This document shows positions 3,197 through 62,059 of a stretch of DNA of 64,000 nt, piece after piece (position 1 is the stretch's first letter; the number at the start of each line of letters is the position of its first letter). The position numbers and the translations under genes were made by a program. Below the pieces are notes generated by a model that saw nothing but the letters and a program-made list of their open reading frames with translations, was not told where the DNA came from and searched no databases. This stretch comes from Isurus oxyrinchus (Eukaryota): assembly GCA_026770705.1 (NCBI GenBank), contig JANJGN010000034.1, positions 2,914,001 to 2,978,000 on the forward strand, read 5' to 3'.

Positions 3197-3223
3197 CTTT
3201 CTCTTTCCTGATAAACTTTTGTT
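3197..3223 (-). CDS. Micro-exon B7 (27 nt): EQKFIRKEK
   Basis: attttcgtctccttccag|AACAAAAGTTTATCAGGAAAGAGAAAG|gtaaca. Confidence 0.9.
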
Positions 3224-6200
3224 CTGGAAGGAGACGAAAATTTAAGATTTATTGTTCAGAGCAGAAGCTGAAGATCAGTTTCAACGAGGAGCATGGACGA
3301 ATGATTTGCACCAGTTCAGCATAACTGGAAATGCATTGAATGCTCAAATGCTTTGTCGTTCCATGTGTGCATTATAAAGAAAGCACCATTTATTTCATGC
3401 GGTTTCGAAGAAAATAAAAGACCCAGTGGAAGGAATATTTAAATGAACCGTCGGATTTTAGCATTTGTGACACTACTGCCGATTTTTCTTCCTATCAGTA
3501 GGGGGCACTACCGACTCTGAACCAGGAGATAAAAACTTTAGGTCGTGAGCTCCCTCCCCCATCCCCACCCACTTTCTGTTTCCCCCTTTTTTCCCCCAAT
3601 AAATTATATAGATTTTTCTTTTCCCACCTATTTCCATTATTTTTAAATATTTTAAAATCTTTTATGCTCCCTCCACCCCCACTAGAGCTGTACCTTGAGT
3701 GCCCTACCATCCATTCTTAATTAACACATTCGTTTAGATAATATCTCCAACTTTAACTTTAACACCGAGTTAAAGACAAAGAAAACTGCGGATGCTGGAA
3801 ATCCAAAACAAAAACAGAATTACCTGGAAAAACTCAGCAGGTCTGGCAGCATCGGCGGAGAAGAAAAGAGTTGACATTTTGAGTCCTCATGACCCTTCGA
3901 CAGAATTTTAACACCTATGTGTTCTATTGTACCATTGTCGCTGACATCTTTTGATGATCTGCTTCTATCACTGCTTGTTTGTCCACACAACCACACCCCC
4001 CCCTCTCTCTATCTCTCTGCCCCCCACACACACACACCTTAAACCAACGTATATTTCAACTCTTTCTTGGACTCAAAATCAAGTTCTGTCGAAGGGTCAT
4101 GAGGACTCGAAACGTCAACTCTTTTCTTCTCTGCCGATGCTGCCAGACCTGCTGAGTTTTTCCAGGTAATTCTGTTTTTGTTCTGAACCAGGAGATGTTG
4201 GTTATCACTCCTATTCCACAGAACTTCAGGACATAATACAAATTGACGTCCCTGGCATCAGTAATTAATTATGGAAGCTCTGACTTTTCAGTGAGATATC
4301 AAACGAGGTCCTGTCGGCCTTCTCAGCAGGAAGTGAATGACCCCATAACAATATTAGAAAATTCATGGCACATCCCCTTTCTGTCGTGGTTAACACTTAT
4401 CGCTCGACAAATATTAGCATTGAAACAGATTAACACCGCTAAGAATCTTATTGCTTTTATAGGCCATTGTTGTGTATTTCAATAGAGAATGCAGCTCAAA
4501 CTTACGCAGTTGACTCTGAAGCATTTTGGACGTCCGGAAAGATGCACCGTCAATGTAAGAGCGTTATTTATTTAAGCTGTTATCTTTAGATTTTGTCATT
4601 TTCAGTGCGGATTGTTATGGCAATTTAAAGTAATGACCATTCAGTACGCACTTAGAATACGGTGCGGTGCATGAGGGCCCGTTTTGTTCGGCGAATTTTA
4701 ATTACCATGTAACATTTTCTGCAGAAATAGATATCTCAAGGACCATCCTTCTTTTGAAAGCATAATATGGTTATGCAATTGTGCAGACTTAAAATTAGCA
4801 TACAAAATTTCCACTGTCTTCGTGAAAGCCTTAATTCTTCAGTTCAGTGACCACTGATTGTATGGACAGATAAATGCATTACTATCACAAAATTAACATA
4901 ATATAAAGTCGTGCTAGATCCAGTGTTGACCCAACATTCTGTCCATTACCAAAAGTAACTACCAACCATATGCTATATCGCATCTCTATTCTTCGGGTAC
5001 AGAAAATGCTTCTCAATGTGTTACCTGCTTTTTCCTGATTATCATGCGTTATGACCCAACTTTTGGTTTAGCCAACATCTGGAAACACATTTTTCTCTGG
5101 CTATACTATCGAATTGGTACATACTTAAAAGAAAAACTCTATCCGGTGACTTAAACAACTCTATCCGGTCACTTGTAATTGTTTGTTCGTGGGTCATATT
5201 ATTTCAGATGAATGGTGTCGACGCCGTTGGTGATTTTGAATTAATTTATTAAAAAGGATTTTAGATATTCTGCATACGCTAAAACACATACGAGCTGTAC
5301 TAGTGAGAGCAGATTATGGGTGCCGGCTGGATGTATTGTTGGGAGAAGCAGTGGAATGCTGATCTCCATGGTTGGCAGTTCACTAGTCCCAGGCCTGACA
5401 AACGGAAGAATGAAACTAATCTTAATAGCTGGACTTCTGAATCTCTTGTGTTTATTTGGTTTTACTGAGATACCCAACATGCTAAGTAGGAGCCAGCATT
5501 GTTACATCTCGAGAGGACATTCCGTGCCCGAGGAGATCTTTTCTCTTCTTGAAAGCCAGTTTGTATACTTGATTTCAGATGGTGTTAAGCCCAGCGCAGA
5601 GTCAAATGTTCAATTAGAAAAGGATAGATATTCAAGGCATCCCCTCCCATTTCTGTTGTCTTGCGGCTCGTCACTTACTAAACATCCAGTTTAATTCTTA
5701 TTCATACGGCTGGTATGGGCCATAGGAACACCCCATTGTGAGGTCTTAGAAAGTCATGTTTTAAACCCTGTGCGACAGCAATAACGGCCGATTTTGTCCT
5801 TTGTTTGTGAACACATGATGTTTTCTTCAGGTATGTGTGTGTGAGAGAGAGAGAAAGAGAGAGAAATAGAGAGAGAGAGAGAGGGAGAAATGCCAACACT
5901 TTCCAATAAGTTTCTTAAGATTTTTAAAAGGCTTACACAATACCCATCCTTCTCTTTCCCAGAAAGCATGCCTTCATCATTTCAGATTGGTATAAGTTTG
6001 CGGTGCTGATATAATCTTTCTGACATTTTAATCCATTCCCACTGCCTCTCACCCTATTTATGCTATGCTGAATATTACATCATACTTGACGTGTCCTCTA
6101 ATAAGGTTTCCTTTCAAATGCAAGATAGATTTTCTATTTTATATCCTCACAAATTCACTCCAGCTCTTTGTTTCCATTGATGTGAAATTTATAATCTGTT

Positions 6201-9200
6201 CTTCTCCTATTAACCGATTTCCGAGTCTGGACAATTGGACGCTTTAGCCGTCGACAACAGGCAGCTTTAAGGGATATTTGGGAAGTGTTTAGTTTCCATC
6301 AAAATGTAACACGTTACATTTAATTATGCTCAGATAAGTTTCAATCTGCCTGTTCAGCAGATGCATTAAGGTCTTCAAATATGTTGTTTCATTCTCCCTC
6401 TGATTAACTGCTCACCAAACTTGCATTCGTCGATAAATTTCGAAGTGGTGCGTCTGTACACGGAGTACGTACTTTTTATGGAAATGCAGAATAATAGTGT
6501 TTGAATTCCCCGACACTTGTGAACACCACTTCTGAATATTTTAAAAATATTTTTCAATAGGTGCTTTTTGATCCATTTGCTTCTCTAATCCACTGATGCA
6601 CTTTAAAGAAAGATTGCATTTCTATAGCACATTTCCTGTCCTCTCGAGATCTCAAAACGCTTTACATTCAAGGAAGTATTTTTGAAGTGAATTCACTTAT
6701 GTAAATTAGGATGCACGGCAGATATTTACACACAGGAAGGCTCATTCTAAAAAGGGTTTGTGTTAAGAATCAGTTAATCTCTTATTGTGATGGTGATTGA
6801 GAGATGGTGATGAATCAAGACACCAGGTACAACTCCACTGCCATTCTTTAAAGTAGTGCCATGAAATAGTTTAACTCCACCTGAGAAGGCAGATGGGGCA
6901 TTGGTTTAAGGTCTTACATAATGCATCACATCGTGCTTGGATCAGCACTCTCTCAGCACCGCATTCTGCTATCACCTTTCGTTTTTTACTGGTTAAATCT
7001 CTGGAATGGAGCCGTTCCTCAATATGCTTTGAGTCAGAGGAAAAAAACATTCTTTCTTGCTGCCAATATATGTCACTTGAGGAATGTAGTTGACTTGACA
7101 CCAGATGGCTACATGATGATGGGAATATTAAATTGAATCTCTCAACATTACCCATCTGCATTATTGACCACCCTCGATGGACCATTCACAGAGGAACGCT
7201 ACCTTTCGGAATGAATGGAAGAGAAAACAAGATGTAAAATTAAATATTCCGATTAACCTGACATCATTAGCAACATCAATCTTAGGCAATGATATTCGAG
7301 GCTTGATAACAAGGCTCTTAGAATAACGTAATATTACACGGTAAAGTCAGCACGGGATTATGGCAGGGAGGCCTTGTTTGACAAATCATTTGGAGTTTTT
7401 GCGATTGCTACGAGTAACTCCGATAAGAGGGTAGCATTGGATTTAGAGTCTTGGAATTAAAAAAAAACAAAGCTTGATAAGGTGCTATTGGATGCTGTTC
7501 ATCAAAGTTGCAGTTAAAGTGATCGACCATACTACATTTGTATCTAGTGAGGGTTCTTAACTTTGAAAAGGGGCAGTGGGTATCATAGGTTATTTCACAG
7601 CTGACAGGGTGTAATTACGAAATATCAAGAGGACCATTGCATGTAAGTTACCTTTTAAAAGCTATATCAAGTATGTCGAATGAAGGACAAGTGTTCAATG
7701 TACTAAGAGTCTCTCAAAGCTTTGCACCAGTACCTAGTCTACCATTCCAAAATAAATCAAATTCCAGATTGAAATCCTGTCTGCAAACTGAGGGATGGAG
7801 AGCCGTCTCACCCCTAGGAGAGATTAGGATCCAAGTTCTGAATTTTTCCTCCACAGATCAATCTTCTTTCGAAGAATGCAAAAAGAGAGAGAGAAAAAAA
7901 AAACTGAGTATAATCAATATGAACACTCCAACGCCAAAAGATGAAACACAATTCTGTCAATGGTACAACATCCATGTCTAGTGTTAGGGAAAATTAAGCA
8001 GCAAAGATAGCTCATGATCTTATGGCGTTGAGACTGCTTGGGTACTTGACTTATCTATTTGCCTAGCCCCTGCCGCTTAACTACAGCAAAAGGTTATAAT
8101 ATTGTATGATATTCATGTGGTTCGGTGTAAGAAGCAGATGTCAGTGTCTAAATGTCAGACACAAAGCAACGCGAGACACTTATGGTTTATGCAGTTTTTC
8201 TCTGCAATATACATACATGACTGACCTAATTGCACAAACTCTATAAATTGCCTATGTCCACTCTTTAGTCCACCCTTGGGTGTTGGAGCAACTCTCAAGT
8301 AACTCCTATGTATATACTGCAATAAGATTTCTGAACGGGAGATGCAGACTCCGTGTGTAGATTCCACTGAACCTCCACAACATCTAGTGATAGAAATATG
8401 TAATATTTTACAGTCATGGGATGTGACCGGTGGTGGAAGGTATTTCCCTGTGAAAGTCGTCTTGAGCTAGCTTCTTGCACCGTTGCAGTCTGTGTTGTGA
8501 AATTAATGCAATTTTGCTGTTGCACCGGTAGTTCCAGGATTTTCCCCCATTGACAGTGAAAGGGGAGCGACATGTTTCCAAGTCAGAATGGAGAGAGACC
8601 TGGTGGGCGAGTTGTAGTTTCATCCCCCCATGCACTTCTTGTCCTTGTCCTTCTGGGTGGTAGATGTCAATGATATAGAAGTCGATGACATCTCTAATAT
8701 TCAAGAAAGCATGGAGATAAAATAAGAATCTATAAGACATCACTTATTGTCTTAGTGCTAAAACATATAGTTAATAATATAACATGTAGCTATGGCTTAT
8801 GTGGCTGGGATAATAGAATAGATTAATAGCAGGAATAGAGAGCCGGAGTAAATTGGTCATTTTCGTGTTTGGCAGCAGGAACTACCAAGAATAAGTGCTT
8901 GGACATCTGTAATTCATAAGCGTTAATGGCTGAAATAATGGACTAAGGACTATTTTTCCACGTTTGTTTATGATACAACGTTAGGTGGAAAAGAGCAGCT
9001 GTGAGGAAGAATGGAATAACATACACGTGATGTGGACAATTGAGTGAAGAACCAAACATGTGAATTATTGGACAGAACAAGGAGAAATGTGACCTAATCC
9101 ACTTAGGGCGGAATAGGAAACAAACCTATTTTTAAATGGTAAGAGACTGCGAAATGTTCATGTTCAATGGATTCTGTGTGTCCACGTACTCAAAGTACAG

Positions 9201-12200
9201 ACAAGTAACATGATGGCACAGAACGTAATTAGAAGAACAAATGTCATGTTAGTATTTAATCTAACAGGTTGGCGTATGTGAGTTAAGATGACCTATTGCA
9301 AATTTATAGGCTCATCATGAGGCACCACCAGGGGCGCTGTGCACACCCGGTTATTTTGCTGAGGATGAAGATATTTGCCTTGCACTGAGTGCAATGGAAG
9401 CTTGAAGGATTGAAAGATTTGATGGTGGGGTTATGTTTTGTGTGATATTAACTTTTTGACGAATAAGTAATGATTGCGTTGAAACACCTAAAATTCTTAA
9501 GGTAGATGCCGGGACAACATTTCTGCAATTCGGAGAGTCTATAATGGCAGATTATGGAATCAGAATAACAGGTAGGTCCTTCAGTTCAGATAAGAAAATG
9601 AACATGTTCCCTTAAATGCTTGCGAATGTTTCAAATTCTGTCCTACACAGATTTGTGAATGCTAAGTCCCAGAACATATTCATGGCTGGGATTAATATAT
9701 TTTTCAATGCTAAACAAAACAAGGGAAATGTGAGCCTTTTCAGAAAAGGTAGCAGTGCTCGCAGATCCGTATTGAGGGGCGGATCAGCTCGTTGGTTCCT
9801 ATTTCCTATGATCTTACGTTATCAAGTTTGTCAATATTCAATTAATTGTCCATCAACATAAATCTTATGCGTTTTGTTAATATCTTATTGCAATTTGCTG
9901 TAACCCTCATACTTTCAGTTTTCAAAACATTGGAATCCAAGAAGGGGATTAGCCTGCTCAGCTCCACATGCAAGTTATGCAGCAGACCGAAGCTAATGTG
10001 TATCCTAACTTTATCTACCCACTTTAATTCTGCAATACAAAATACATTTGACAAACTAATACCCAGAGTTGTCAGTTTTGTCATGTCTTCAACTGCATTT
10101 TCGCCAAGAACTTTGTGAGGGAATGCTTCCTAACATAACAGTTTTACACTCTATCTATAATCTTACGATTCTGTTGCATTGGTGTGGAATCACGCACAAG
10201 AATTTGAGAACATAAGAACAGAAGAAACAGGAACAGGAGTAGACCATTCAGCCACCGAACCTGCTCCGTAATTCATTAAGATCAAGGCTGAGCTTTGTTT
10301 CTTTTTCCACATTGCATCAACATCCGATAAGTTTTGGTTCTCTTGCTTGACAAGAATCTATCTACCTCTGCCTTATAATCTATTCAGTGACCCCGGCTCA
10401 ACGAGCTTCTGAGGCAGAGAGTTCCAAAGTCGCAAAGCCTTCTAAGAGAAAAAAAAATGTCCTCATCTCTGTCCTGAAAGTGCGACACCTAATTTTAAAA
10501 CAGTGCCCCCTAGTTCTGGACTCACCCACAAGAGGAAACAATCTTTTGGCGTCCACCTTGTCAAGGCCATTCAGGGTCTTGTATACGTCAATCAAATCGC
10601 CCCTCATTCCTCTAAACTCCAGCGGACACAAGGCTACTATGTCCAACCTTTCCTCATAAGACAACCCACTCAGTCCAGAAGTCAACCTAGTAAACGTCCT
10701 CTGAAAAGCCTCCAATACACTTACATCCTTCATAAATAAGGGGGCCAAAACAGCAGCCAATATTTGAGATGTGGTCTCAGCAATGCCCTGTATAACTGAA
10801 GCATAATATCCTTAATTTTATGTTAATAATCTTAAATGCCTAAAAGCTATCACTCCAAAATCTTTCATAACGAAGTGAATACAATCCTCATCTATGCTAC
10901 CTGTTGTTCTGATTTAACTCTTATATCCCGGATGCACTGCTGTGAATCGACACTGCTGCTCATGCAGGTGCAATATAATTCCCTGTTGTTCAGTTAAAAT
11001 ACAGTACTCCATGTGCTATCTCACCAGAGTTCTGTAAAGTTCCCTCGTATTTAAGGCTCTTTTATGTTACATTCATTTTTACAAAAAGGCCACTCTCCAA
11101 TTATAATGTCAAATGTGGTGCATACCTGCCCATTACATGTTAGTCATATCTGTACTTGGACGATTAAATCTCTCTGATCGCTCACTATTCCTAACTTCTA
11201 GCCAGTTATAAAGTTATCCAAGTCCTATTCCTTAGACCCAACGAGAATGATAGAATTTCCACAGTGAAACCCATCTCTCTGTTCTGCCCATTATACTTCA
11301 CATTTGACTTTTTCCTTTGCAACTTTTTTCAGGTACATTGTCCACTATGCCACAGAACTGTATCCTGTCAGCAAAGTTATGTTTGCATTTTACAAAACCT
11401 ATGGTTTTCATTGGAGGCTTTGTGGTGCATCAGGTAGAGTCCTTGCCATTGAGTGGGAAGCTTTAGCCCAATGCTGCACTCCAGGTCTTGAGTGGTGAGG
11501 AAAGGCCATTTATAATGTGGCTAAGAGAGGTGAATATCAACTTTTAACTCCTTTCAACACACGCCAATGGCAGATGATTAGAGCGAGAGAGGTTCCTACT
11601 CAGCCATGTGATGGAAAGTAATTAGAGCAGCTACATAGTTCCGGACTGCAACAAGCATGCACAAATGCATGTTGCAAAAGCAACTCTGTGTTATTGGGGT
11701 ACCGCTTTGCCTAGCTGTGAAATAGATTGTTGCGAACATGATTGGATCCATCCACGTTGCGGGCTGGCTCTAACTTTTAGACCTACCTGATGAGGCTTTG
11801 GGGAGGTGGTAACCTCAGGCAGAGAACTCAAGAGGCAGCACAAGGTTTCATCCTTCTAAAGAAGCAGATATGACATCGGCAAAAATCTGTGGCCCCAATA
11901 GTGATTATTAATTGACTTGATGTGTGATACTTTGCTAATATCAGTGCTCTCCTTAGAACTTTCTTCCATCTCCTAGCTGTTAAGTTATTCATTATTCCGT
12001 ATGTTGTCTCCTTAGTTGCCATTAAGTTCAGTAAACAGCATGCATAAATAATAGTCAAAGCAAAAACATGAGACATGATATGAAACATGGATCTCACTTA
12101 GATCACCACTTAGTCATACACGCTGAGGGGATACTACCATAATTTCAAATTTCAAGCCATGAATTGTTTCTGTCTCAAAATTAGCGGCTGCTATACACTT

Positions 12201-51200: not shown

Positions 51201-54200
51201 TGTTTGAAAGGCTGTTTAAAGAACGAATGAAAATGCAAATCCTAAATGTAATTCAACGGACAGAATGGTCCCCTTCTGTGACGGAAATGACTCCATGGCT
51301 ATCAGAAGACCATTACATCCATTACATATCAAAGCTAACAATAGGTTCTGGGCTTCTTGTTCGAATCACGTGGAAAATCCATAGTTTGGTTGCACACTTT
51401 CGTGGAAGTCATCATAACTGAGCTAGATTCGGGTTACTTATGGAACATTAGAGAGATAGACTGGGAATAAATCTCAACAATTGGGTAAAGTTTGTTTTTG
51501 CTGAGATATCGTTTAATTCCTGCAGAATGGAAACATGTACTTGGAAACAAACAACATCCGGATCCGTAGTAGGCTTTCAAGCAAGGAATGCTCAGAGTTC
51601 GTAGCAAGCCTTTTCTCTCAAGGAAAAAAAAAAGCAAGGTACGGCTCACAAGCCCAGGGACCTTGTATGTCAAGGAGATAAAAGAGAGAATTAAGGAAAT
51701 AAAGAAGGGACCTTACACTTCTTGCGAAAGGCTAAATATAGTGCAAAACTTGGAAGGATATAGAAAAAAAAAACAGAAGGAAGTTAGGACGGGAAAATCA
51801 CGCAAGTAAAAGTATTGTGAAGCAAACTTAAGGTAAATCAACAGTTTTTTTTTACTTAATAAAGCAAGGTGATAACGAATAAGGCGCTCCTCGGCACCAT
51901 ATCGGTGTGTGGAGGTGGGGAATGTTGGAATAATTCTTACTGAATGGTTTGCTTGTGCTCTCTTGACGAAAGAGAGGCTCAATGCTGACAATGCAATCCA
52001 GGAGGAGCATTGTGAAGTATTTGATGAAATTAACATAGCGAGGTAGGAAGTTTTAAACATGTTGACATCTTTCAATGTGGATAACTAACCAAGCTAGAAA
52101 GAAATGCATCCGAGGCAGTTAAGGTACGCAAGCTAACGAATGTTGAAGTTTCTTATCATCGTTTTCCAAACGTCTCTAACTACAGACGTGTTGCCAGAGT
52201 GCAGCAGGACAGATACATGTTTACCATTGTTTGAAATGGGATAAAAAGGATAAGTCAATTAATTGCAGGCCGGCTAGCTTACTATCGGTGGTGCGGCAAT
52301 TATTGGAATGAGTTCTTGTGTCAGGGTAACCCTTCATTCAAAGAAACACGGACCAATCAAAGACAATAAGGACGAACTTGTTAAGGGATTTAATGCTGAC
52401 TGACTTGCATATCTCTTGTGAGAATGATGAGGGAAACCACTTTGAAGTACTCAGCATGGGTTTTAGATAGGGCCTCGATCAGGCACCACATAGTAAAACG
52501 TTTACAAAGTGTGATTTGGATTCAAATTTGGCTTAAAGGCGGAAGGGGAAAGTTAATGTTTGAGGATCTTTATTCATTTCATTTTTGACTGTGCGGCTGT
52601 GTACAGTGGGGTTCTGCAAGTTACGGCCCTAGGTCACTTGTTCTTTGTAACATATTTCTATGATCTGTGCTAGAATTTATTGGAGGTGATTAAGCAGGTT
52701 GCCTTCGTTAAAACAAATTGTCATGCTGTTGATAGTGGAAGAAAAGTGCTTTAGACAGTGATAAGTGGACTGATCAGATGGACAGAAGACTGGCTAGTGT
52801 AGTTCAATATGTCATTAGGTAAGTTTGCAGTAATGCATTTGCAAAAGGCTAACGAGGTAAGTGAAGATAGAATTAATTGTTGCACCCGAGGTTGCCAACC
52901 CAATTCAGTTACTTGAAGGGACTGCTCCTTAATTTTTGTTTGCATGTCAGCCCAACAGTCCGGATTATCTGCCAGCCGTTGCAGAGGTGGTGGTAATTGG
53001 GCGGGAGGGTGGTGGCTGGGAGGGAGGATGACCTCCTCATAAGCCTCGTCCTGGGCCTGGCCGAGTGGCCATCAACAATTACAGGCAGAGAACGAACACC
53101 GAGATTTTCTGACCTTACTGTCTCCCTCTCAACTGCAGCATTGTTCACGGCCAGGTGACTCTGGAGTGGGAGCACGCAATGACTACCAGGACGCTTGAGG
53201 CCTTACATGGCCAATGGGCAGCACGGAGGCTGGGGCACATCATCACTCCCGGGAATCTATTTTTGGTTTAGTTAATTAATTTTTTTTTGATGCTTTGATT
53301 TCAGTTGCTGTGGCGCACTTGGGGCTGTCATTCCCTCTGATTTATTGGTTTTTCATTAATTTATTGATTTTTGTTTTACTGAAACACTAGTGTGATTGAT
53401 TGGATACTGTATTGCAGAACAACAGTGGGACCTTCGAGTGTGGACAGGTGGGTAAGCTGGTCAAAAAAGCATCGGAAATATTGGACTGTGTTCACCAAAA
53501 TAATATAAGGCTGTCAGGTTATGCTGAAATGCCTGAAACACTAATTTAAGCAGCGGTGATGTACTGTATGCTGTTCTCCTTTCCACACTGTGGGAAAGCT
53601 GTGGTTGCACTATAGGTGGACTGGCCGAGATTTAATTGGATTTTGCATGAAATAGAGAATTTTAGCCATGGCGAAGGGGTGGCTAGGCTGGGGTTGTCTA
53701 CTTTGGGGTACATGAGGCTGAGCCTAACTGAATTGCATGAATTTATGAAGAGTGTTGAAAGAGAATTCATAGATGTGTAGTAATAAGTAAGAGTTTAAGC
53801 TGCGATTTAAGGACCCATTTCACCCAAGTGGCAATCTGGAATGAAGATTTAAATCCGCATAACGTTAAGCAATACTCGTATATACGCTTTAATTCCCCCA
53901 ACCTACGGACAAAGAGTTGGAAAGTAGGTGTAGGCTGAATGGTTACTTGTCAACCAATGCAGATACGATAGATTGAACGGCATCCTTCCACATTGCGAAC
54001 TTCCATAATTCTATGATTACATAAACCATTTGATTGGCATCCCAACTAGCACCTCATGCCTGCTATCCATCCATCATATTCACAGTTTGCGTAAAGTATG
54101 TGTCATCTTCAAGATGTACTGCAGTGCTTCACCATTCCTACATTGATGACATCGTATAATTTTTTGACACTTGCTGCCGAGGTAAAATAAAGGACATCTG

Positions 54201-57200
54201 ATGCATAGCAATGACACTAATTCCTGGCCATGAAGGCTAGGGAGTTGCTAATATATAACCGTTCTGTCATTGTCACTATGTCAATATGTGGGAGCTCCCT
54301 TCCAAGCAGCACTCTGGAATTACCTTCACTATTCAGACTGTAGTCGTTCAAAAATACATCATTCACACTCCAGAGTCACGAAAGGTTGACAAAGCCTAAT
54401 TAATTTGGCTGCAGCGTAAATGTCAGATGACCCTCGAAATGTAATTAAACGTTTTATACCAGTTTCTGTTCAATCTAAATTGGGTTCATGAGCGACACCG
54501 TCCTCCTATTGTCTGGTCATACTCTCTGATAACGTTCCATTCCATTCATTTGTAGGTACATATCTGCATTCCCCTTACAATGAAATCCGTCTCAACCTCT
54601 CAGCATGGCCTTGCATTCAAGAGTCTAACCAACAATGGAATGTGAGCAATTATTAGTTCCATGGAAGCTGCATTGTTCCATCGAGTTACAGGGGCTGATT
54701 GTGATAATCAATCGACTGCTCAGTTATCCTTGCTGGATCGGAATACAATAATGCCATGTGACAATTGATCCTTTTCACCTAGGAACTCCTATAGTATCAA
54801 TACTGTAAAATTGCACAACCCTCTTTACTCGTTTACTCATGCGCAGAGGGTGAAGTTAGTCACAGATTACATACCAGCGTATTTTACGGTATCAACATGT
54901 TATCAATCATACCTTTATCTTTGTCGGCCAAGTTGATTTCTAATAGAAACAAAAATGAGAACAATTAATCCCTTTAATCACGGGGCAATTAGTAACACAA
55001 AAACAGAAGAAATTGGAGAAGGGTGGAACATATGGCTGGTCGAGACTGCTCAGTCATTCAATAAGATCATGGCTGATATTGGGCCTCAACTGTATTTTAA
55101 TGCCCGCTCTCCATATTCCTCAATTCACTGAAAGACCAAAACTCCATCTCTCCTAGCCTCAAATTCATGCAACGATGGTTCATCTACAACCCTCTGGGGT
55201 AAAGAATTCCAAAGATTCACAAGGCTTCGATTGAAGTAATTTCTCCTAATCTCCGCACTATTGAACTGCCCTTCGTCCTGAGGTTGTGCCCCCTTGTCTT
55301 AAGTTCCGCAACCAGAGGAAACAATTTCTCAGCATCTCCCATATAAAGTCCCTGCAGAATTTTTGCAGTTTTCACTGAGATCGTCTCTCATTCTTCTAAA
55401 CTTCAGAGAGCAGAGGAATAATTTTCTCAGCCTCTCATCATGGGGTAAGCTACTCGTCCTGGAGGCTAATTTAGCGACCCTTCACTTTACCAGCTGCATT
55501 TCAGGCCTGTCATTAGTTGAATATAGAGACCTGATAGGCACACAGCACTCCAGAAGTGGTCTCTCGAAAATGCTTTACAATTGTAGCAAGACTTTTTCAT
55601 TATTTTACTCCAGTCACCTGCAATGAAGTTCAGTATGCCATATGCATTCCGACTTGCTTGGTGTACCTGCATGCTAACTTCTTGCATTTCTTTTAGGAGC
55701 AGAGCCAAGATTTTTTGAACATCAGGACTTACATGTTTCACGCCATTGAAGCAAAATACGGCTTTTATAATCTTACGGTCAAAGTGAATAGCTTCACACT
55801 TCCATACATTGTACTTCGTCTGCCATCTTGTTGTCCAAATCACGTACCTGTCGATATCTCTTTTCAGCCGCTCATTGCCCTTCCTGCAGTTTACCATAAC
55901 ACATAGCTTGACATCACCAAAAAACTTAGATATGTTACTTTCTGTCTCTGTATCTAACTAATTAATATAAATTGTAAATATTTCAGGCCGTAGGACTGAT
56001 TCTTGACCAATCGACTATTCACTACCTGAAACTTGAAAAGCCACAATCATACCCATGCTCTGCTATGTCCGATGTCTTTCTTTCTGATATTGTGTTTTTC
56101 AATAGAATATATTTTAGTTGAACTTTTAACTAATGTAAACAGGTGTCATTAATCTAATCTTGATTACCTATTAGTCCGAATTCCACGAACCCCTATCTTG
56201 CCTATTAACCATTGGTGTTGCACCTTATCAATACCTTTTGGAAATCGACCTTCACAACTTCAACTTGTTCCCTTCATCCATCTTACTAGTTTCATGCTAA
56301 AAACATTCTATTACATTTTTCCAAACAGATTTTCCTGAATAAAACCACGTTGTCTTACTCTAAACATATTATGATCTCCTACGTGCATTTTGAAGACTTC
56401 CTTCATGATAAATTCCAGCATTTTCCGAAGAACTGATTTTTGGCTCAGCAGTCTGTAATTTATCGATTTTCACTTCCCCTTTATTTAAAGATGTGCAACA
56501 ACTTCCAAATTCCAAATTAAACAAGCCATTCCCGAATCAAAGGAATTTTGTAAAATCATGGTTAACACATTCATAATCTCTGCAACCATCTCTTTTAGGA
56601 GCCTAAGGCATAGGCTATAGGATCACTAGGATTTGTCAGATTTTAGTCCCTAAAATTTCTCAGGTACCTTTTATCTATAAACTTTCCTTAATTTCCTAAC
56701 TCTTTTTAGTGCCTTCGCTACTCCCTATTTCTAGCATTAAACACATGACTTTTACTGTGAATACAGATACAAATTATTTGTTCAATTCCCTTGCAATTTC
56801 CTCATCACTCGCCCCGAATCTGCACCTCTTGTTTCTGCTTCTAGGGAACCAACGTTTACTCTAGCTTCTCTTTTCCTTTTTATATGCTTATCAAAACTCT
56901 TTCAATCTGTTTTTATATTTTTGGGCTATTTCCCTCTCCTATTCTACTTTTTCTCTTATTACCAAAATTTTGATGTGTCTTTGCTGGTTTTTGAAACAGT
57001 ACCAATACTCAGACTCACTACTGCTTCTTTTTTGTCTTTATGTTTCCATTGCTAGCTTTCTGATTGAACCACGGACTGGTCTTTCTTTCTGATTTTTTTT
57101 TCAACTGAATATTTTTCAGTTGAATATTTGACTTGTTTATTTCAATGTTTTACGCTCTTCATTATTATCCGTACCATTTAGTCTATTTTCCAATTAAGCA

Positions 57201-60200
57201 AAGTCAGTATTTCTCTCGTACCAATGTAATTGGTGTTGCTAAGTTTATGATTCTCTTTTGTGATTGGAGTACATCACCTGCAATATTCATAAGGAATAGA
57301 AGTGTGTTATGATTGCTATTTCCCAATGGAGCAATTACAATGACAATAATAATCAACCATCCTTCATTACACGATACTCTATCTAAGAAGGCTTTATCCT
57401 GAGTCACTTTCACAGCATTTGTCTCCACGAAGTTGTCATGGGATCATTCTACATCTTCTAGACCATTTTTTCCAATTGAACTGTCTCAGTCAAAATGGAG
57501 ATCAAAGCTGTCTGCAAGTATTAGGCTTCCATTGTAACATGTTCCAAAAAAAAATCTGTCCAAAAGTTATTATGACTGTCAGGGTATTTATAAAATGCTC
57601 CGAACAATGCTTTATGGCTCTTTATAATTCCTAATTTCCACACATACTATTTAGGCCTCATGGTCTTTAGAGGTTGGACCCTTTCTCATGAATGTCCATA
57701 TTTCATCCTTTGCTATCGTGACTATCACTCCTCATTTGCTATTTTCTCTGTCTTTCCAAAATTTGATGTACCTGGAATATTTATTTACCATTTCTGATCA
57801 TCTTGTAACCATGTCTCAAAAAAATGGCATTCATAACCGAAACACTACTCCCATGAATGCTGAAAATAAAGTCACTTGTTGCCGCATTTGACTGAGAGCT
57901 GAATATTGGATTAGCAGAATGTTTTATTAACAGGCTCAACATTGACAACTAGGAACGTAACAACTAGCAGAATGTTTTGTTAACAGGCTCGACATTGACA
58001 ACTAGGCACGTAACAATTTCCGTTTATATATTGTTGTGGTGAAGGGAGGGAAGGCAGATTTGGCATCTTTCTTCCCCGCATTAAACTGCAGCAATCGATA
58101 ATTTGTGAAGAGGTTAAGGGAAATGGTTTTGAAGCTTCCCAGCAATTTTCTCCTAGCAGTCATTTTAGTCCATTTGGAGAGGCAATGATAAGCGAATGGT
58201 ACTTCATTGGACTTATAAGAGCTAATCAGGTGGAGTCAATGTTTCCACATTTAAAATACTAATTCTTTTTCTTAATATTATCATAGTCTTAGGCTTTCAA
58301 GTGAATAATCAATCAGTGTGCTTTGGTACTTTTAGTTATTTTAATCAGAGACTTTCAACAAATAAAGCGCAATAATGCTCTGTCCAATCTTCTAACCTCG
58401 ATGTAAAAAAAGAACCCTTTACATAATAAAAACTAACTTTGTATCCGCAATGCCATTGACACTCAGCACGTCAGAGTTAATGCTTAGACAGAAGTTTCAA
58501 TCTTCTTCTGAAAAGTTCTGTTCTGAAGATGTCATATTCGGCTCAAAACGTTACCTCTGTCTCTCTTTTTACAGTTGCAAACAGACCTATTGGGTATTTT
58601 CAACGCCTTCTGTTTTTACTTCAGATTTGCAGCATCCACGGGATTTCACTACAATTAAAATTAAGTTGTGGTTTAACTTGGATATAAGAGTGTGATGGGC
58701 AATTTAGGGGCTTGTAATCCAAATAATGTAAGATCAATTTCTATACAAACGGCAGTTTGCAATATCCATTTGGATTTGTAAATGCCAAAATGCTCAGCTC
58801 ATAAAAGTAACATGTTACGGGTAAAAGGGTAATGGTGGAAAGACTATACACTCACTAAAGAAGGTGCAAGAATTATTTAAAATAATTACATCATAATGAA
58901 AGCGCACAATTGTGACAGAATACTGAATAGGTGAAGATGGGTAAGGGTGACTTGATAAAGGTTTTTCAGATTATAAATGGATTTGCCATCAAAAGGTAGA
59001 AATTATGCTTCCATTGTCGGAGTGGACAGATTATGGCATAGATGCAAAACAGTTATACATTTATCGAATATGTAATTCAGGAAAACATTCTTTCCCCATA
59101 GGATGATTGAAATTTGAAACAGCTACTGCATGTAGTGAACAGAATACCAAGCAGATAAAGGAACAGGAAATGCAGGTATGGTATATGAAGCAGAATATTG
59201 TTGAATAATCGCCTGGGCAATATCCAACAGCACAGGGAATTTGGACGAAATCACATGTTTTCATCTTATGAATTCTGTGTAATATGAAATGATTTATAAA
59301 ATGGCGGAATAGACTACTTCTATCAGTTGCATTAGATGACCGTGGTAGTTCATTATGCTAAAGGGTTGCCGGGATAGGTATAGTTCGAATGTGGAAAAAG
59401 CTGGACAATTATAGAGTAGAGGCTGATGATTGATTTGGAGAATATAACAATGGTGAATCGTTATTAAGCTCTGTAGTCCCTGGAGGAAGTCAGGTAGGAA
59501 TTTAATCTGGAAGCAGCACAAAAGTGAAAGCATCATAAAGACCGTCCTTTATACTCAATGTTTCATATCAAGTTAACGTCATTTCAGTAAAACAAAGCAT
59601 CAAGCAGATTGTGCAACGTGATGTCGTGTGATTCCCTTGATTTAGCGCAGCCAACCAAAGTGCATTTCTACAGCAGGCAAACATGTTTAATCAAGCCATA
59701 TGAAGCCATCATGGGACAATAGAGAACTTGCAAGCAGATTCATAATGTAGTTGCATAATGTGATGAGATAGGATCAAAAGAATAATTCGAGCTGCTATTT
59801 TTTTGTTTTTTGTTGGAAAAGAGGAGTTCAAAGGGATCTCTTAGGCAAACATTACATTTTGGCAAAAGTCGATGAACGCTGATATGTGAGGCTGTTTCAA
59901 TAATGTGGATGACTGGTACAAGGGATACATTAATAACATCACGTAAGCATATAGTGTATAGTCAACAAGCTAAACGAAATTTGATGAGCTCATGAGGAAA
60001 CTGTACAGAAAGAGGCCATAACTCATTTTGTTTCTCATTAAGGTATATATAGAATTAATCCCTATCACGAGGACATGGAAAGTAAGAGCAAGAATATACC
60101 ATTTGGACCTTCAAAGCTATTGTTATTGGGATCATTGTTGATCTTCGGTGTCAACTTCACCTCCCTGCAATTCTATTGATCTCTGTTTTTAGCGTACAAC

Positions 60201-61298
60201 ACCCATAGGCAGTGATTTACAAAGCTTAACAATCATTGAGTTAAACAAAAGTCTCCTCTTCTCAGCCCTAAATGAGTGACCCCTGGTAGTTAACACATTG
60301 TCCAATAATTATAGACTAGACAGCCTGGCTAAACAGCCTGGATAAACAGCGTACCAGCATTTACCTTGGTGTCCACCATAGGACTTTTATAATTTTGAGA
60401 GATGACCTTTGATTCTGTTCACCTCCCAAGAATTTGGCATTAATCTGCTCAATCCTTTCTCATAGCAAAATCCTCTGATCCCCAAATTAGTCCATTGAGC
60501 CATTGCTGCATTCCTTTTAATGTAAACACATCCTTTCTTTTATAAGTGGATTAAAGAAAACTGTACAAAGTACTCTAGCAGTAGTTGCATCAAAAAATAG
60601 CAACGCATGTAATCTATCCAAAGACCTGTGTCCATTTGGTTTCCCAACGTATATACAAGCTACTTTTGAAAACTAATGTTGAGTATTCTTTCATCACCTT
60701 TTGAAGATCCACTTCCCCTAACCATTTGCTGCGTAGAGAAAAGAAATCCTTGCCAGCGTGCCTTTGCTTTTTTGTAATTAGCTTAACTGTGCATTGCCAA
60801 CTGTCCTTTTATGGGCATCTTTCCTCCTAATCTTTAAGTATCAAAACATTTCCTAATCTTGAACGACTCCATGAAATCTCTGTTTAATCCTTTCTGCTCA
60901 AGAAAGAAAAATATTAACTTCCTTATTCAACTTGCACACGGGGATTAAGGAGAAGATGGTCACTGAAGCGATCATTATGATGACATTTGAGAATAGTTTA
61001 GATAGGTGGCTAACAAAATAAAATGGGTTAAGAGTCTCTTGAGGCATAGTGAATACAAGGAATTAGCCACAGTGCAAATAGCAAAAATGAAAGTGAAATA
61101 AATTGATAAGTCAATGTCTTTTCTCCCTATTTTGGCCTTGACATCATTCAAGATAACATTCCGATTGAGCAAAATGCCTGAAAGTAGCTGACCAGCCTAA
61201 TATGTTTCTAAGGCTAGGAATCAAGCCTACAATAAAACGTGAACTCAAACGTTTACACTTACCTCTTTCTCTGAGAGTATTTTTAAGAGTTTCCATCC
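3197..61298 (-). CDS. Partial multi-exon gene (both ends not found): coiled-coil region encoded by 14 alternating 36-nt and 27-nt phase-1 micro-exons, 7 x 21-aa repeats; possibly a butyrophilin/BG-like or other coiled-coil protein
   Basis: join(complement: 61263-61298, 54913-54939, 44106-44141, 42005-42031, 38423-38458, 33969-33995, 32279-32314, 30832-30858, 24341-24376, 18765-18791, 13620-13655, 12833-12859, 12235-12270, 3197-3223). Every exon is bounded by AG and GT and lengths alternate strictly. The 441-nt join is stop-free and translates to self-similar repeats with heptad periodicity. The family assignment is inference only. Confidence 0.88.
3496..4570 (+). mobile_element. SacSINE1/DeuSINE-like SINE split by a Penelope insertion (SINE parts 3496-3530 and 4197-4570)
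   Basis: SINE head (gggggcactaccgactctgaaccaggaga) resumes after the insert; 15-bp direct repeat tctgaaccaggagat at 3516-3530 and 4182-4196. Confidence 0.75.
3531..4181 (+). mobile_element. Young Penelope-like 3' fragment with a nested inverted pseudo-LTR
   Basis: Similar to the 3' UTR of the Penelope element at 27690-28180; about 100-bp inverted arms at 3807-3906 and 4084-4182; 15-bp TSD. Confidence 0.85.
5831..5888. repeat. (GT)n(GA)n compound microsatellite
   Basis: gtatgtgtgtgtgagagagagagaaagagagagaaatagagagagagaga. Confidence 0.9.
6600..7010 (-). mobile_element. SacSINE1/DeuSINE-like SINE
   Basis: Reverse-complemented tail (aaagaaagattgcatttctatagcac...aaaacgctttaca) and core (tccacctgagaaggcagatgggg...cagcactctctcagcaccgca). 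Confidence 0.75.
7250..7640 (+). mobile_element. Decayed CR1 RT fragment
   Basis: Remnant of the SQHGF..GR.CLTN..EFF motif (agtcagcacgggattatggcagggaggccttgtttgacaaatcatttggagtttttg). Confidence 0.6.
8670..9830 (+). mobile_element. Decayed CR1 LINE, RT region to 3' end
   Basis: Remnants of VD..L.FKKA, D(T)LGG and the CR1 C-terminus; ends in ttcctatttcctatgatctt tail. Confidence 0.65.
10205..10825 (-). mobile_element. CR1 (HER1-like) LINE 3' end
   Basis: ORF 10398-10760 LEAFQRTFTRLTSGLSGLSYEERLD...RGDLIDVYKTLNGLDKVDA..LFPLVGESRTRGH is the CR1 ORF2 C-terminus; gaacataagaac tail repeat. Confidence 0.9.
12235..12270 (-). CDS. Micro-exon A7 (36 nt): ELENLKRTLQDE
   Basis: ttttttgttgtttcgttttcatag|AACTAGAAAATCTGAAACGGACCCTGCAAGATGAAG|gtcaat; strong acceptor, weak donor, close match to the repeat consensus. 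Confidence 0.85.
12375..12523. other. Assembly gap (149 N) in the intron between micro-exons B6 and A7
   Basis: Run of n flanked by purine-rich low-complexity sequence. Confidence 0.99.
12833..12859 (-). CDS. Micro-exon B6 (27 nt): DQKLIKKDK
   Basis: attcatgttcccaccag|ACCAAAAGCTCATCAAGAAAGACAAAG|gtgagg; 22/27 nt identical to exon B7. Confidence 0.9.
13620..13655 (-). CDS. Micro-exon A6 (36 nt): AIGKLKDTINEM
   Basis: cttatttatctccgttctag|CCATAGGAAAACTAAAAGACACCATCAATGAAATGG|gtgagc; the other two frames contain stops. Confidence 0.9.
14930..15215 (+). mobile_element. Decayed CR1 3' end
   Basis: ttttttttatgcagcgacttattttgatcttggattcac followed by a CR1-like 3' UTR. Confidence 0.55.
15900..17630 (+). 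mobile_element. Decayed L2-type LINE, RT to 3' end
   Basis: ORF 16287 LLKLTNDML...LVVLLSLPGAFSTVDHD..FQQL matches the L2 RT motif LLDLSAAFDTVDH; ITPVL motif near 17195; tail ctatataatg...gttgttgtt. Confidence 0.8.
18765..18791 (-). CDS. Micro-exon B5 (27 nt): EQKLAKKDT
   Basis: tttactttaattctcttag|AGCAAAAATTGGCGAAAAAGGACACAG|gtaagt. Confidence 0.92.
20020..20295 (-). mobile_element. SacSINE1/DeuSINE-like fragment
   Basis: acagcactccttcagtagtgctctagagtgtcaacctagg...aagctccggagtgcaacttgaatccatgacc resembles the reverse-complemented SINE 5' half. Confidence 0.6.
21230..22760 (+). mobile_element. CR1 LINE 5' part (ORF1 esterase-like, start of endonuclease) with a nested CR1 3' end at about 22205-22470
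   Basis: VVIDSVVSGLDRRFCGQRCDSKILGFLPGA matches the SGNH-esterase motif of CR1 ORF1; YFNAR and YDFIA.TE endonuclease motifs at 22610-22710; nested tail gatggttctatggttct. Confidence 0.75.
23060..24235 (+). mobile_element. Decayed Penelope-like element (GIY-YIG end, 3' UTR, pseudo-LTR)
   Basis: GTFPCKNRRCNTCP and KHRLSD.F...KHEPEIPVACHF; collinear with 26900-28180. Confidence 0.8.
24341..24376 (-). CDS. Micro-exon A5 (36 nt): EVENQQNLVFEC
   Basis: T-rich tract ending tttttctacag|AAGTGGAAAATCAACAAAATCTTGTATTTGAGTGTG|gtgagt. Confidence 0.9.
25150..25700 (-). mobile_element. Decayed CR1 3' end
   Basis: Reverse-complement remnants (tcccacaatactcacgccgaaacctaacc; ttatccaaattccttttt). Confidence 0.5.
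25870..28182 (+). mobile_element. Penelope-like element, 5'-truncated and frameshifted: RT + GIY-YIG endonuclease + 3' pseudo-LTR
   Basis: FYLLPRMHKQDCPGRTIVS, YASIPH, GPSYACLF and FLRCINDCF (decayed YIDD) RT motifs; NLVYCIRCSQCGLLYIGETNCRLSDHFVE GIY-YIG motif; TLQPSGLNIEF C-terminus. Confidence 0.95.
30010..30700 (-). mobile_element. Decayed CR1 3' end
   Basis: cctcgcacctgttccaccattcactgagatggtgactgat and downstream sequence resemble the copy at 10205-10825. Confidence 0.6.
30832..30858 (-). CDS. Micro-exon B4 (27 nt): ETKFSEKIK
   Basis: ttctaacttatgtttccctag|AAACAAAGTTCAGCGAAAAAATCAAAG|gtgagg; branch-point-like ctaac upstream. Confidence 0.88.
32279..32314 (-). CDS. Micro-exon A4 (36 nt): VLEKAKSDIADL
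   Basis: ttattattttcctacag|TACTAGAAAAAGCGAAAAGCGATATTGCTGATCTTG|gtgagt. Confidence 0.9.
33969..33995 (-). CDS. Micro-exon B3 (27 nt): EQNVYHKGK
   Basis: ttttgtaattcatgttgtaattag|AACAAAACGTGTACCACAAAGGAAAAG|gtgagg. Confidence 0.83.
34130..37950 (+). mobile_element. Long decayed CR1 LINE (5' UTR, ORF1, endonuclease, RT; 3'-truncated)
   Basis: ORF1 C..C..W and VVLLGDSLVRGT remnants; endonuclease ESIWVELRN...TLVGAIYGP...ILGNFN (ORF 35985); RT remnants to FANDTK and FNVNKC; two related 5' UTR segments near 34160 and 34500. Confidence 0.88.
38423..38458 (-). CDS. Micro-exon A3 (36 nt): EIEKNRNNLLDC
   Basis: ttttttgccacctcatcactaaag|AAATAGAAAAAAATCGAAATAACCTCCTGGATTGTG|gtgagt; weaker AAG acceptor, strong donor. 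Confidence 0.85.
39011..39188 (-). mobile_element. Penelope pseudo-LTR fragment with a fold-back end
   Basis: aaacaaaaccagaaaatgctggaaaaactcag ... ctgggtttttccagcattttctgtttttgttt inverted arms. Confidence 0.75.
39335..39520 (-). mobile_element. Non-LTR retrotransposon RT C-terminal fragment
   Basis: LRRVTHLLRPQSLSTTYKAHVRSVMEYS; related fragments near 46980-47290 and 48350-48530. Confidence 0.7.
40520..40660 (+). mobile_element. Penelope pseudo-LTR fragment
   Basis: gctgtcagacctgctgagattttccagca...tttccggcatctgcagtattttgcctttatt. Confidence 0.65.
41380..41635. repeat. Degenerate (GATA/GACA)n tetranucleotide microsatellite
   Basis: gatagatagatagacagatagatagataga... Confidence 0.92.
41640..41743 (-). 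mobile_element. Young Penelope pseudo-LTR insertion with a 13-bp TSD
   Basis: Differs from 3807-3904 at only 3 positions; gatagacagctaa at 41627-41639 and 41744-41756. Confidence 0.88.
42005..42031 (-). CDS. Micro-exon B2 (27 nt): DIRLNNKDK
   Basis: ttctgcattgctattag|ACATAAGGTTGAACAACAAGGACAAAG|gtaagg. Confidence 0.88.
42290..43480 (-). mobile_element. Decayed L2-type LINE, RT to 3' end
   Basis: ORF 43033-43281 TETALIKVANDIL...IVFPDLSVAFFTIGHSILLQCL; reverse-complemented tail acaacaaacacattttatttacatag. Confidence 0.85.
43965..44050 (+). mobile_element. Short retroposon 3' tail with poly(A), 55 nt from micro-exon A2
   Basis: agggtaattagggatgagcatttaatgctggcctagccagcaacgccacatcccaagaacgaac followed by A10. 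Confidence 0.6.
44106..44141 (-). CDS. Micro-exon A2 (36 nt): ELQKLQVNLQEC
   Basis: tttttgtgtttgttaccag|AACTTCAAAAACTGCAAGTCAATCTCCAAGAATGTG|gtaagt. Confidence 0.9.
45200..46960 (-). mobile_element. Decayed CR1 LINE, RT to 3' end
   Basis: ORF 46433-46642 PEGWEVVKLLLFLKK...YRLV..VNLT (decayed P.DW..A.V..LFKK..YRPVSLT); other CR1 remnants. Confidence 0.65.
48990..50323 (+). mobile_element. CR1 LINE, RT to 3' end
   Basis: LQTDMNRLSE...EYNVYKCEIVHFGRK; LEAVQ.RFARLIPGM.GL.YEE; 3' UTR aatggtggagcaggctcgtggggcagagtggccttctcccgctcc and atgttc repeats. Confidence 0.88.
50324..50790 (-). mobile_element. Penelope-like element 3' end (second family) with a hammerhead-like motif
   Basis: Decayed remnant resembling a GIY-YIG C-terminus at 50640-50790; minus strand ends tgtcCTGATGAgtgaaaggtGAAAagctTCggca. 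Confidence 0.7.
50336..50369 (-). ncRNA. Putative minimal type-I hammerhead ribozyme of a Penelope pseudo-LTR
   Basis: UGUC-CUGAUGA-gugaaaggu-GAAA-AGCU-UC-GGCA: intact CUGANGA and GAAA cores, UC cleavage site, stem I UGUC/GGCA, palindromic AAGCUU stem III; stem II is weak. Confidence 0.5.
51480..54020 (+). mobile_element. Decayed CR1 LINE interrupted at about 52870-53380 by an unrelated GC-richer insert
   Basis: RT remnants (PLFE.G...N.RP.SLLSVV; FN...K..VMHL) and 3' tail cttccataattctatgatt. Confidence 0.65.
54913..54939 (-). CDS. Micro-exon B1 (27 nt, phase 1-1): EINLADKDK
   Basis: tctcatttttgtttctattag|AAATCAACTTGGCCGACAAAGATAAAG|gtatga. Confidence 0.88.
54985..57890 (-). mobile_element. 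CR1 LINE (endonuclease-RT-3' end), starting about 45 nt from the acceptor of micro-exon B1
   Basis: ORF 55487-55897 RLKRDIDR...WQTKYNVWKCEAIHF; reverse-complemented 3' UTR (gctcagtcattcaataagatcatggctgat). Confidence 0.85.
57912..58016. repeat. 53-bp tandem duplication (2 copies)
   Basis: tagcagaatgttttattaacaggctcaacattgacaactaggaacgtaacaac then tagcagaatgttttgttaacaggctcgacattgacaactaggcacgtaacaa; 3 mismatches. Confidence 0.92.
58465..58650 (+). mobile_element. Decayed Penelope pseudo-LTR
   Basis: gttctgaagatgtcatattcggctcaaaacgttacctctgtctctc...ttctgtttttacttcagatttgcagcatc. Confidence 0.7.
60060..60600 (-). mobile_element. Decayed CR1 3' end
   Basis: Collinear by eye with 10205-10825 and 54985-55600. 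Confidence 0.6.
61263..61298 (-). CDS. Micro-exon A1 (36 nt, phase 1-1): (G)METLKNTLRER
   Basis: attcctttcatttcaccag|GGATGGAAACTCTTAAAAATACTCTCAGAGAAAGAG|gtaagt; the first residue assumes the preceding exon ends in G, as all others do. Confidence 0.87.
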
Positions 61299-61519
61299 CT
61301 GGTGAAATGAAAGGAATACATGTATCACGGAAATTTATTCTTGAGTGCTGGGTTAGTGAGCTGTGCGGTTGGGGGGAAGTGAAATGTTTTTGTGTAGGGT
61401 ATTATAAAAGAAGGAATAGCAGGATGGACATATGGCTAAACATTTCAATGTGTATGAAACCGAGCAGTAGATCTAAAGGTATATAACACTGAGTCGGGGT
61501 GAAAATACAAGGTCCCTGA

Positions 61520-61800
61520 AAATAGGAAATTACATTTATATAACCTCCCGATTGCAGTGAAACATTCCAAATGGCATCACCCGAGTGTTAGCATTCAAAA
61601 TTTGACAGCGAACCATATCACTTGAAATTAGGATGCAACTCCAAAAGAAGTGGCCAAGATATACGTTTTATGTGTTGTTCTAAAGGAGTGGAGAGCGAAA
61701 GCTAGTTGGGGACTGATGAGTAGTGAGTTCCAGAACTCATGGGTGAGGTGGATGACGGGTGAGGTAAGATGAGAACCGGAGGTGCACACCTGCCCGGAGT
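61520..61800 (-). mobile_element. Decayed L2-type 3' end
   Basis: aggaaattacatttatataacctc...aaacattccaaatggcatcac resembles 42290-42560. Confidence 0.55.
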
Positions 61801-62059
61801 TGGATGATGCAGATGTTTCAAAACAGTGCAATCCAAACCTCCTTGGAAAGTGCAGAAAGCCCTAGACTTTAACTGGAAAACTTAAAAAGAAATTTGAGCA
61901 TGGTAAAACGAATTGATGCTGGGATGCAAGTCTTTAATAATAAACAGTTCGTATTCGCAGGCAGGGAGAAAACATACGTTGGAAATGAAGGAAAAACATC
62001 AGCAAGCTTATTTGGATACACAGGACTCAAAGCCTAGAAATTAATCATCAAGGGAGCTT

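Follow-up and report, generated by a model that had tools for sequence, protein, structure and literature searches.

Alternating 36- and 27-nt micro-exons in Isurus oxyrinchus belong to a giant gene with a predicted coiled-coil rod and a terminal B30.2 exon

The micro-exon array and the gene that contains it

The window, by which we mean the whole 64,000-nt stretch of Isurus oxyrinchus DNA under analysis (contig JANJGN010000034.1, here C34, positions 2,914,001–2,978,000, within a 4.98-Gb genome), lies along its full length (1..64000, minus strand) inside one gene. The original prediction had placed in it 14 minus-strand exons with AG/GT ends and lengths alternating between 36 nt (A exons) and 27 nt (B exons), and all 14 were recovered at the claimed positions by a splice-site scan followed by a profile scan. 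In the order of the minus strand, these are A1 (61263..61298), B1 (54913..54939, which opens a 72-kb block duplicated downstream), A2 (44106..44141, of which a duplicate copy was found), B2 (42005..42031), A3 (38423..38458), B3 (33969..33995), A4 (32279..32314), B4 (30832..30858), A5 (24341..24376), B5 (18765..18791), A6 (13620..13655), B6 (12833..12859), A7 (12235..12270) and B7 (3197..3223). The inventory was correct but incomplete: a 15th exon had been overlooked, the 36-nt A8 at 760..795 (minus strand, profile score 21.4), the duplicate of which is retained at C34:2,840,049. All 14 claimed exons are indeed phase 1-1 and end in G; their 441-nt join is open, with no stops in the phase-1 frame versus 8 and 11 in the other two frames; the introns measure 562–10,771 nt; and 0.76% of the span is coding, in agreement with the proposed value of below 1%. 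That the introns consist mainly of retroelement debris was not confirmed: 16% of the window, as a lower bound, matches elsewhere in the 1.26 Mb compared. Broken ORF fragments (window +25798–26933 and +35943–36473) look by eye like parts of retroelement reverse transcriptase and endonuclease, and similar reverse transcriptase-like fragments recur across the gene cluster.

That these segments are chance AG…GT stretches, or retroelement pieces chosen to look exonic, is so improbable as to be negligible. While iterative training of the profile on minus-strand matches could have inflated the scores, leave-one-out scoring, the strand null and the alternation of exon types all reject such a reading, and a profile trained on nothing but the 15 exons of the window recovered the array over 460 kb, its best plus-strand score being 10.5. 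Within the window, the leave-one-out scores of the 12 seed exons were 14.6–37.5, and the two non-seed exons, B3 and A7, were picked up by the profile at 28.5 and 26.0 bits, respectively. In the null scan of the window's plus strand, called for in the original prediction, neither the 350 candidates of one exon type nor the 381 of the other included any that reached a score of 0. Across the whole gene span, none of the 9,592 plus-strand candidates scored 12 or more, as compared to 140 exons reaching this threshold in leave-one-out scoring (65 of 36 nt and 75 of 27 nt) among 9,466 minus-strand candidates. The two types alternate in 121 of the 139 neighbour pairs; 100,000 shuffles gave 69.6 alternating pairs on average and never more than 94.

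The array neither begins nor finishes within the window. By profile scan, the repeat exons of the gene run on the minus strand from C34:3,430,467 to C34:2,715,151, and a terminal B30.2/SPRY exon follows at C34:2,709,152–2,708,632 (minus strand), approximately 205 kb beyond the left end of the window, so that the gene spans 721,836 bp. The strict 36/27 register is broken by 18 same-type neighbour pairs, and several exons of 18, 24, 27 and 33 nt with good splice sites sit in these same-type gaps. Since such exons of other sizes fill gaps, and since ten more candidates scoring 8–12 were excluded from the count, 140 exons is a lower bound. When joined, the 138 stop-free exons encode 1,433 amino acids with no stops. 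The remaining two (C34:3,343,771 and C34:2,768,956, minus strand) contain in-frame stops; each adjoins an intact exon of the same type, and both are likely dead duplicates that are skipped.

The terminal exon has a phase-1 acceptor, is located 6 kb past the last repeat exon and encodes a 173-residue B30.2/SPRY domain, matching SPRY in Pfam with an E-value of 6e-15 and, among solved structures, matching the B30.2 domain of BTN3A1 best (E 2e-26). An exon of this kind had been among the features to be sought downstream. The gene has two butyrophilin-type features: heptads on short phase-1 exons, and a C-terminal B30.2 domain on a single terminal exon. Further downstream, C34:2,519,000–2,690,000 consists mostly of long simple or minisatellite-like repeats that produce many spurious ORFs. 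No transcript of the gene was seen, although the RNA searches are uninformative either way: contigs of four same-species runs missed the B30.2 coding exon, yielding only repeat-derived pieces of its 3' flank, contigs of four runs missed the three window exons that were tried, and no RNA record was listed for window positions 12200–13700.

Duplicated blocks and constraint on the exons

Two tandem duplications are visible within the gene. The first (C34:2,822,000–2,976,000) has a unit of approximately 72 kb with 20 exons and introns that are 11% diverged, and the window makes up most of its upstream copy. The second, further upstream in the gene (C34:3,160,000–3,236,000), has a unit of approximately 34 kb with 8 exons, is 12% diverged and carries an extra partial repeat of one exon pair. 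In both cases the exons have changed less than the blocks around them: in the first duplication, 37 of 621 exon positions are mismatched (6.0%), as compared to 11.3% over the 63.6 kb aligned (P 4e-6; 20 exon pairs), and in the second the figures are 16 of 243 versus 12.3% (P 0.002; 8 exon pairs). Length, frame and splice dinucleotides are kept in all 28 duplicated exon pairs, with no exon indels, in blocks whose overall alignment contains approximately 600 gap openings and twice the substitutions of the exons. An 18-nt exon between two 36-nt exons is also retained in both duplicates (C34:2,903,100 and C34:2,831,845, minus strand), and would shift the heptad register at that point.

These data bear on whether the gene is a decaying pseudogene, or a never-expressed relic whose exons are still recognisable. 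Stops occur in two exons, no full-length version of the gene was found among database proteins, and the dN/dS ratio of the duplicate exons, 0.60, is not significantly below 1 on synonymous sites alone (P 0.11), all of which fit decay. Against this, the 28 duplicated pairs have stayed intact in length, frame and splice dinucleotides despite the gaps and substitutions of their blocks, and the B30.2 exon is intact, with 67–69% identity to its counterparts in two other sharks; we thus regard decay as very improbable. The gene is real, constrained and giant, and it is largely unannotated. As judged by sequence comparison, the exons are conserved and the individual residues appear to be loosely constrained, as those of a spacer would be. 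At approximately 720 kb and less than 1% coding, such a gene is largely missed by ORF finders and by current annotation.

A family of related genes in cartilaginous fishes

The module is not unique to this gene: it is common to at least six loci in this genome and to a chimaera. The B30.2 exons closest to that of our gene (150 of 468 candidates scored) are four on C34, at 3.474, 4.817, 6.396 and 7.496 Mb, bringing the copies of this type on C34 to five, and one on C21; micro-exons precede each of these five closest B30.2 exons, as sampled. Exon sizes vary between the loci. Gene 2 has 36- and 27-nt exons and some of 21 and 30 nt, and lies head to head with gene 3; genes 3 and 5 contain runs of 21-nt, one-heptad exons (C34:4,070,000–4,109,000 and C34:6,459,000–6,466,000, plus strand), the exon size of BG and butyrophilin tails. 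The C21 paralogue (C21:89,670,000–89,723,000, plus strand) is compact, at approximately 50 kb, with mostly 27-nt exons, and sits in a very large B30.2 cluster (most of the 150 scored matches fall at C21 82–118 Mb). Its exons match RefSeq models of catshark and electric ray one by one, with three consecutive exons mapping to residues 238, 247 and 256 of the catshark protein XP_038672306.1.

In database entries from two sharks, the orthologues of our gene's B30.2 domain (69% and 67% identity) are 'hypothetical' proteins that consist of B30.2 alone and lack the rod, and a search for longer proteins (304–2,000 residues) with the B30.2 exon yielded four ordinary TRIM-type proteins. A search of 1.84 billion representatives returned further family members from catshark, electric ray, skate, basking shark and chimaera; with the chimaera rod as the query, only chimaera models were returned. 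The relatives have been named automatically as 'TRIM39-like', 'TRIM58', 'TRIM69-like', 'A33-like' or 'nuclear-pore anchor-like', although in all seven that we scanned PRY/SPRY was the only significant Pfam family, the architecture was a coiled coil plus B30.2, and no RING, B-box or TRIM_CC was found. Family models include XP_042192744.1 ('nuclear-pore anchor-like'), XP_038672306.1, XP_069775384.1, XP_055510696.1, XP_038668997.1, scyTo_0019795 and chiPu_0007872. They share with our gene the B30.2 clade, an architecture of coiled coil plus B30.2 only and blocks of 9 and 12 residues, and are 172–1,722 residues long, while the two orthologues of the gene are lone B30.2 domains. Isoform models in three species differ by 9-residue blocks, and in two chimaera models of approximately 1,700 residues, 8 of 14 rows contain exact indels of 9 or 12 residues. 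As far as predicted models go, species other than this one thus also combine the 9-/12-residue exon module with B30.2.

A quick, midpoint-rooted tree was built from 66 B30.2 domains (3 genes from this genome, 11 relatives and 52 other selected matches). It unites the 14 family rows on a single branch (SH-aLRT 100), separate from all sampled butyrophilin-type and TRIM rows. The clade takes in catsharks, bamboo shark, rays and chimaera, which bears out the proposed cartilaginous-fish origin; the butyrophilin-type and TRIM rows are interleaved and the root is a midpoint, so that the tree points to no particular donor of the B30.2 domain. A separate B30.2 clade and a rod of 9-/12-residue exons are features of a distinct cartilaginous-fish family, and our gene has both. 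The module had been presented as unrecognised from any described gene. It is already represented by RefSeq models, albeit under misleading names, and to this extent the claim does not stand; as to published accounts it does, since no description of a coiled-coil plus B30.2 micro-exon family was found in the literature searched, subscription papers and supplements lying outside that search. The databases searched contain only short or misnamed pieces of the family.

The proposed link to the heptad-exon design of butyrophilins and BG proteins is upheld by the heptad exons and the downstream B30.2 exon. In butyrophilins, the heptads ahead of the B30.2 exon are encoded on short phase-1 exons, 21 or 27 nt in length. 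The heptad repeats of these proteins are followed by a C-terminal B30.2 (PRY-SPRY) domain (PMC8813856, PMC4046983), and heptad-exon tails are a design of butyrophilins and chicken BG proteins alike (PMC4046983, PMC8813856, PMC12841164). Our gene resembles butyrophilins in having heptads and then B30.2, with BTN3A1 the best solved match of its terminal exon, but it differs in that no IgV or IgC exon was found for it, in having approximately 200 heptads rather than a few, and in a B30.2 clade separate from the 9 Ig-bearing proteins sampled. Chicken BG and the BG-derived intestinal zipper protein are characterised by a long coiled-coil tail made of many tiny in-frame exons and by a tandem cluster, with expansion, contraction and alternative splicing of the tail exons (PMC4046983, PMC8813856). 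The long tail of tiny in-frame exons and the tandem gene cluster are common to both systems; however, BG exons encode 7 (sometimes 8) residues while the unit here is a two-exon module of 12 + 9 residues, and BG proteins have IgV and a transmembrane segment with no B30.2, while in our gene, which spans 722 kb, IgV was not found and B30.2 closes the protein.

In outline our gene resembles the guinea-pig enterophilins, which combine many regular heptads (up to approximately 45) with a C-terminal B30.2 domain and are not known to have an Ig or transmembrane part; they are mammalian and far shorter. Enterophilin-1 is reported to bind sorting nexin 1 (PMC13749957). TRIM-B30.2 E3 ligases share the order of coiled coil and then PRY-SPRY, but RING and B-box are absent from the seven relatives and were not found upstream of our gene; moreover, TRIM coiled coils are antiparallel, whereas the charge pattern described below would fit a parallel rod. 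As no Ig exon, expected of a butyrophilin or BG gene, and no RING or B-box exon, expected of a TRIM gene, was found, we file the gene under neither heading. The combination of heptad exons and B30.2 is a known design; the two-exon 36 + 27 module at this scale is a new form of it. The gene is an extreme case of encoding heptads exon by exon, as butyrophilin and BG tails do, and its family has members in sharks, rays and a chimaera. It also bears on the source of the butyrophilins' module of heptads plus B30.2.

The 5' end and the predicted rod

A receptor with an Ig ectodomain, one of the possibilities originally raised, is not borne out by the region upstream of the repeats. None of the 39 minus-strand ORFs of at least 80 residues at C34:3.430–3.474 Mb (border-crossing ORFs being cut) matched Ig, RING or B-box families, while a V-set control in the same scan was detected at E 2e-16, and Ig families were likewise absent from the 41 ORFs in the gap between the head-to-head neighbouring genes. 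The upstream Ig result comes from this ORF scan and not from the genome-wide V-set search, in which 150 of 3,319 candidates were scored. Searches for RING and B-box by tblastn gave weak scattered matches only, a TRIM control going undetected as well, and one weak Ig-type tblastn match at C34:2.726 Mb (E 0.006) sits among retroelement-like ORFs. Since no Ig or RING/B-box exon was found upstream, the gene does not qualify as a canonical member of the butyrophilins or TRIMs.

No clear first exon emerged when the sequence was scanned for ATG-donor exons, for hydrophobic leaders, for CpG peaks and for relatives of a 111-nt exon (see below), and the 44 kb that separate the first repeat exon from the B30.2 exon of the upstream gene held no convincing extra micro-exon. 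A candidate first coding exon, which would give the protein a Met-Arg-Arg start, ends at a strong donor at C34:3,440,839, 10 kb upstream of the first repeat exon; in frame ahead of this donor are a hydrophobic run of 12 residues and two arginines, and the short hydrophobic run might start the protein instead if there were an exon upstream of the candidate. Paralogues 3 and 4 share a conserved exon of 111 nt and phase 1-1 that opens with hydrophobic residues (C34:4,005,537–4,005,647 and C34:4,859,457–4,859,567, plus strand), 70% identical between the two and located upstream of their first repeat exons. A 'D/N-F/W-x-L' leader considered for paralogue 3 was rejected: its score was circular, and it coincides with an internal exon's polypyrimidine tract.

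The lack of a clear first exon leaves room for a much larger transcription unit, in which our gene and its same-strand upstream neighbour would be transcribed together over more than 1.2 Mb, the two B30.2 exons serving as alternative last exons and the window being part of the distal rod. Every exon is phase-compatible with such a unit, the 44-kb gap lacks a convincing first exon, and the jump required (48 kb) is near the largest intragenic gap (32 kb). However, in the tandem pair on the opposite strand the downstream gene restarts with its own 111-nt, RTIKxKxE-, LxxLxQLNDxK- and DIIxQKEx-type exons; the matching exon sets with which genes 3 and 4 open point to separate genes that arose by whole-gene duplication, and not to one read-through unit. 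The B30.2 exons of our gene and its neighbour are, furthermore, 44% identical, each with its own orthologue in other sharks. We consider a single unit improbable.

The hydrophobic start of the 111-nt exon in genes 3 and 4 lends some probability to a membrane anchor: the rod and its head could be held by a short N-terminal hydrophobic segment, making an Ig-less butyrophilin- or BG-like protein with a very long cytoplasmic tail. A hydrophobic stretch also opens the chimaera and skate models, and the run with two arginines before the strong donor at C34:3,440,839 would suit such a role. These runs are, however, shorter than a usual transmembrane helix, and the region upstream of our gene yielded no counterpart of the 111-nt exon; when the chimaera and skate N-termini served as queries in a non-circular search, the paralogue leader was not among the top five, and electric-ray, catshark and short chimaera models begin with no hydrophobic stretch. 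On balance, an anchored protein is unlikely, though it is the strongest of the competing readings. That Ig, RING and B-box exons were looked for and not found makes an intracellular protein most likely.

The predicted three-heptad coiled-coil module, encoded on hidden micro-exons, is supported by the periodicity and by the pattern of a and d residues. Over the whole gene (64 A and 74 B exons), four of the five repeat positions proposed to be hydrophobic are so, with L, I, V, M or F in 97, 86, 92 and 92% of cases at positions 2, 5, 9 and 16; position 12, at 30%, is only weakly so. The hydrophobic positions fit a and d of three heptads. Lysine at position 19, described as invariant, is present in all 7 window repeats, and across the gene this position is K or R in 88%. 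Both the window and the longest alternating run show a hydrophobicity period of 3.50 (in the run, power 28 versus a shuffle maximum of 7). In the whole chain the 3.5 peak is absent, its power (5.7) falling inside the range of the shuffles, since the register is displaced wherever neighbours are of the same type. Opposite charges at g and e' mark a parallel in-register coiled coil, and in 61 units the ratios of attractive to repulsive g–e' pairs are 33:2, 10:6 and 18:2, the g8–e13 pair being weakly complementary. The 3.5-residue period and the complementary charges together suggest a parallel coiled coil, and the repeat chain is predicted to form a parallel dimer. With a coiled-coil rise of approximately 0.148 nm per residue, the rod would be approximately 200–210 nm long.

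Our favoured reading, to which we assign a probability of roughly 60%, is that a cytoplasmic parallel coiled-coil rod built from approximately 140 exons presents paired B30.2 heads and acts as a spacer or tether. The approximately 140 in-frame 36- and 27-nt exons spread over 722 kb and the B30.2 exon would probably be spliced into a single transcript that encodes a protein of 1,600 residues or more, with each 36 + 27 pair contributing exactly three heptads. Two such chains are predicted to pair as a parallel rod with a B30.2 binding head on each, a dimeric state suggested by the sequence, and the long rod may hold the two heads for avid binding of a partner; such a protein can be likened to a butyrophilin or BG cytoplasmic tail minus the receptor part. 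As all exons are phase 1-1 and multiples of three, exons and blocks can duplicate or drop out with the frame kept. Rod length could accordingly be altered in evolution by block duplication, of which two instances are visible, and possibly in the cell by in-frame exon skipping, as the relatives' isoform models hint. The gene offers a direct test case for the splicing of more than 140 micro-exons (27–36 nt) across multi-kilobase introns, as well as for the control of rod length by exon skipping.

A bolder version, which we hold to be rather doubtful, is that these near-megabase genes, kept in cartilaginous fishes since before the shark–chimaera split, are splice-tunable molecular rulers, with read-through between tandem genes possibly swapping heads. 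If so, cells would choose rod length and register from hundreds of frame-neutral exons of 7, 9 and 12 residues, yielding a rod of at least 200 nm tipped with a variable B30.2 recognition head. As regards our gene's own head, two positions that we take to be the phosphoantigen-pocket histidines of BTN3A1 (numbering assumed) align to Thr and Ser in its B30.2 domain, and this replacement makes phosphoantigen sensing unlikely.
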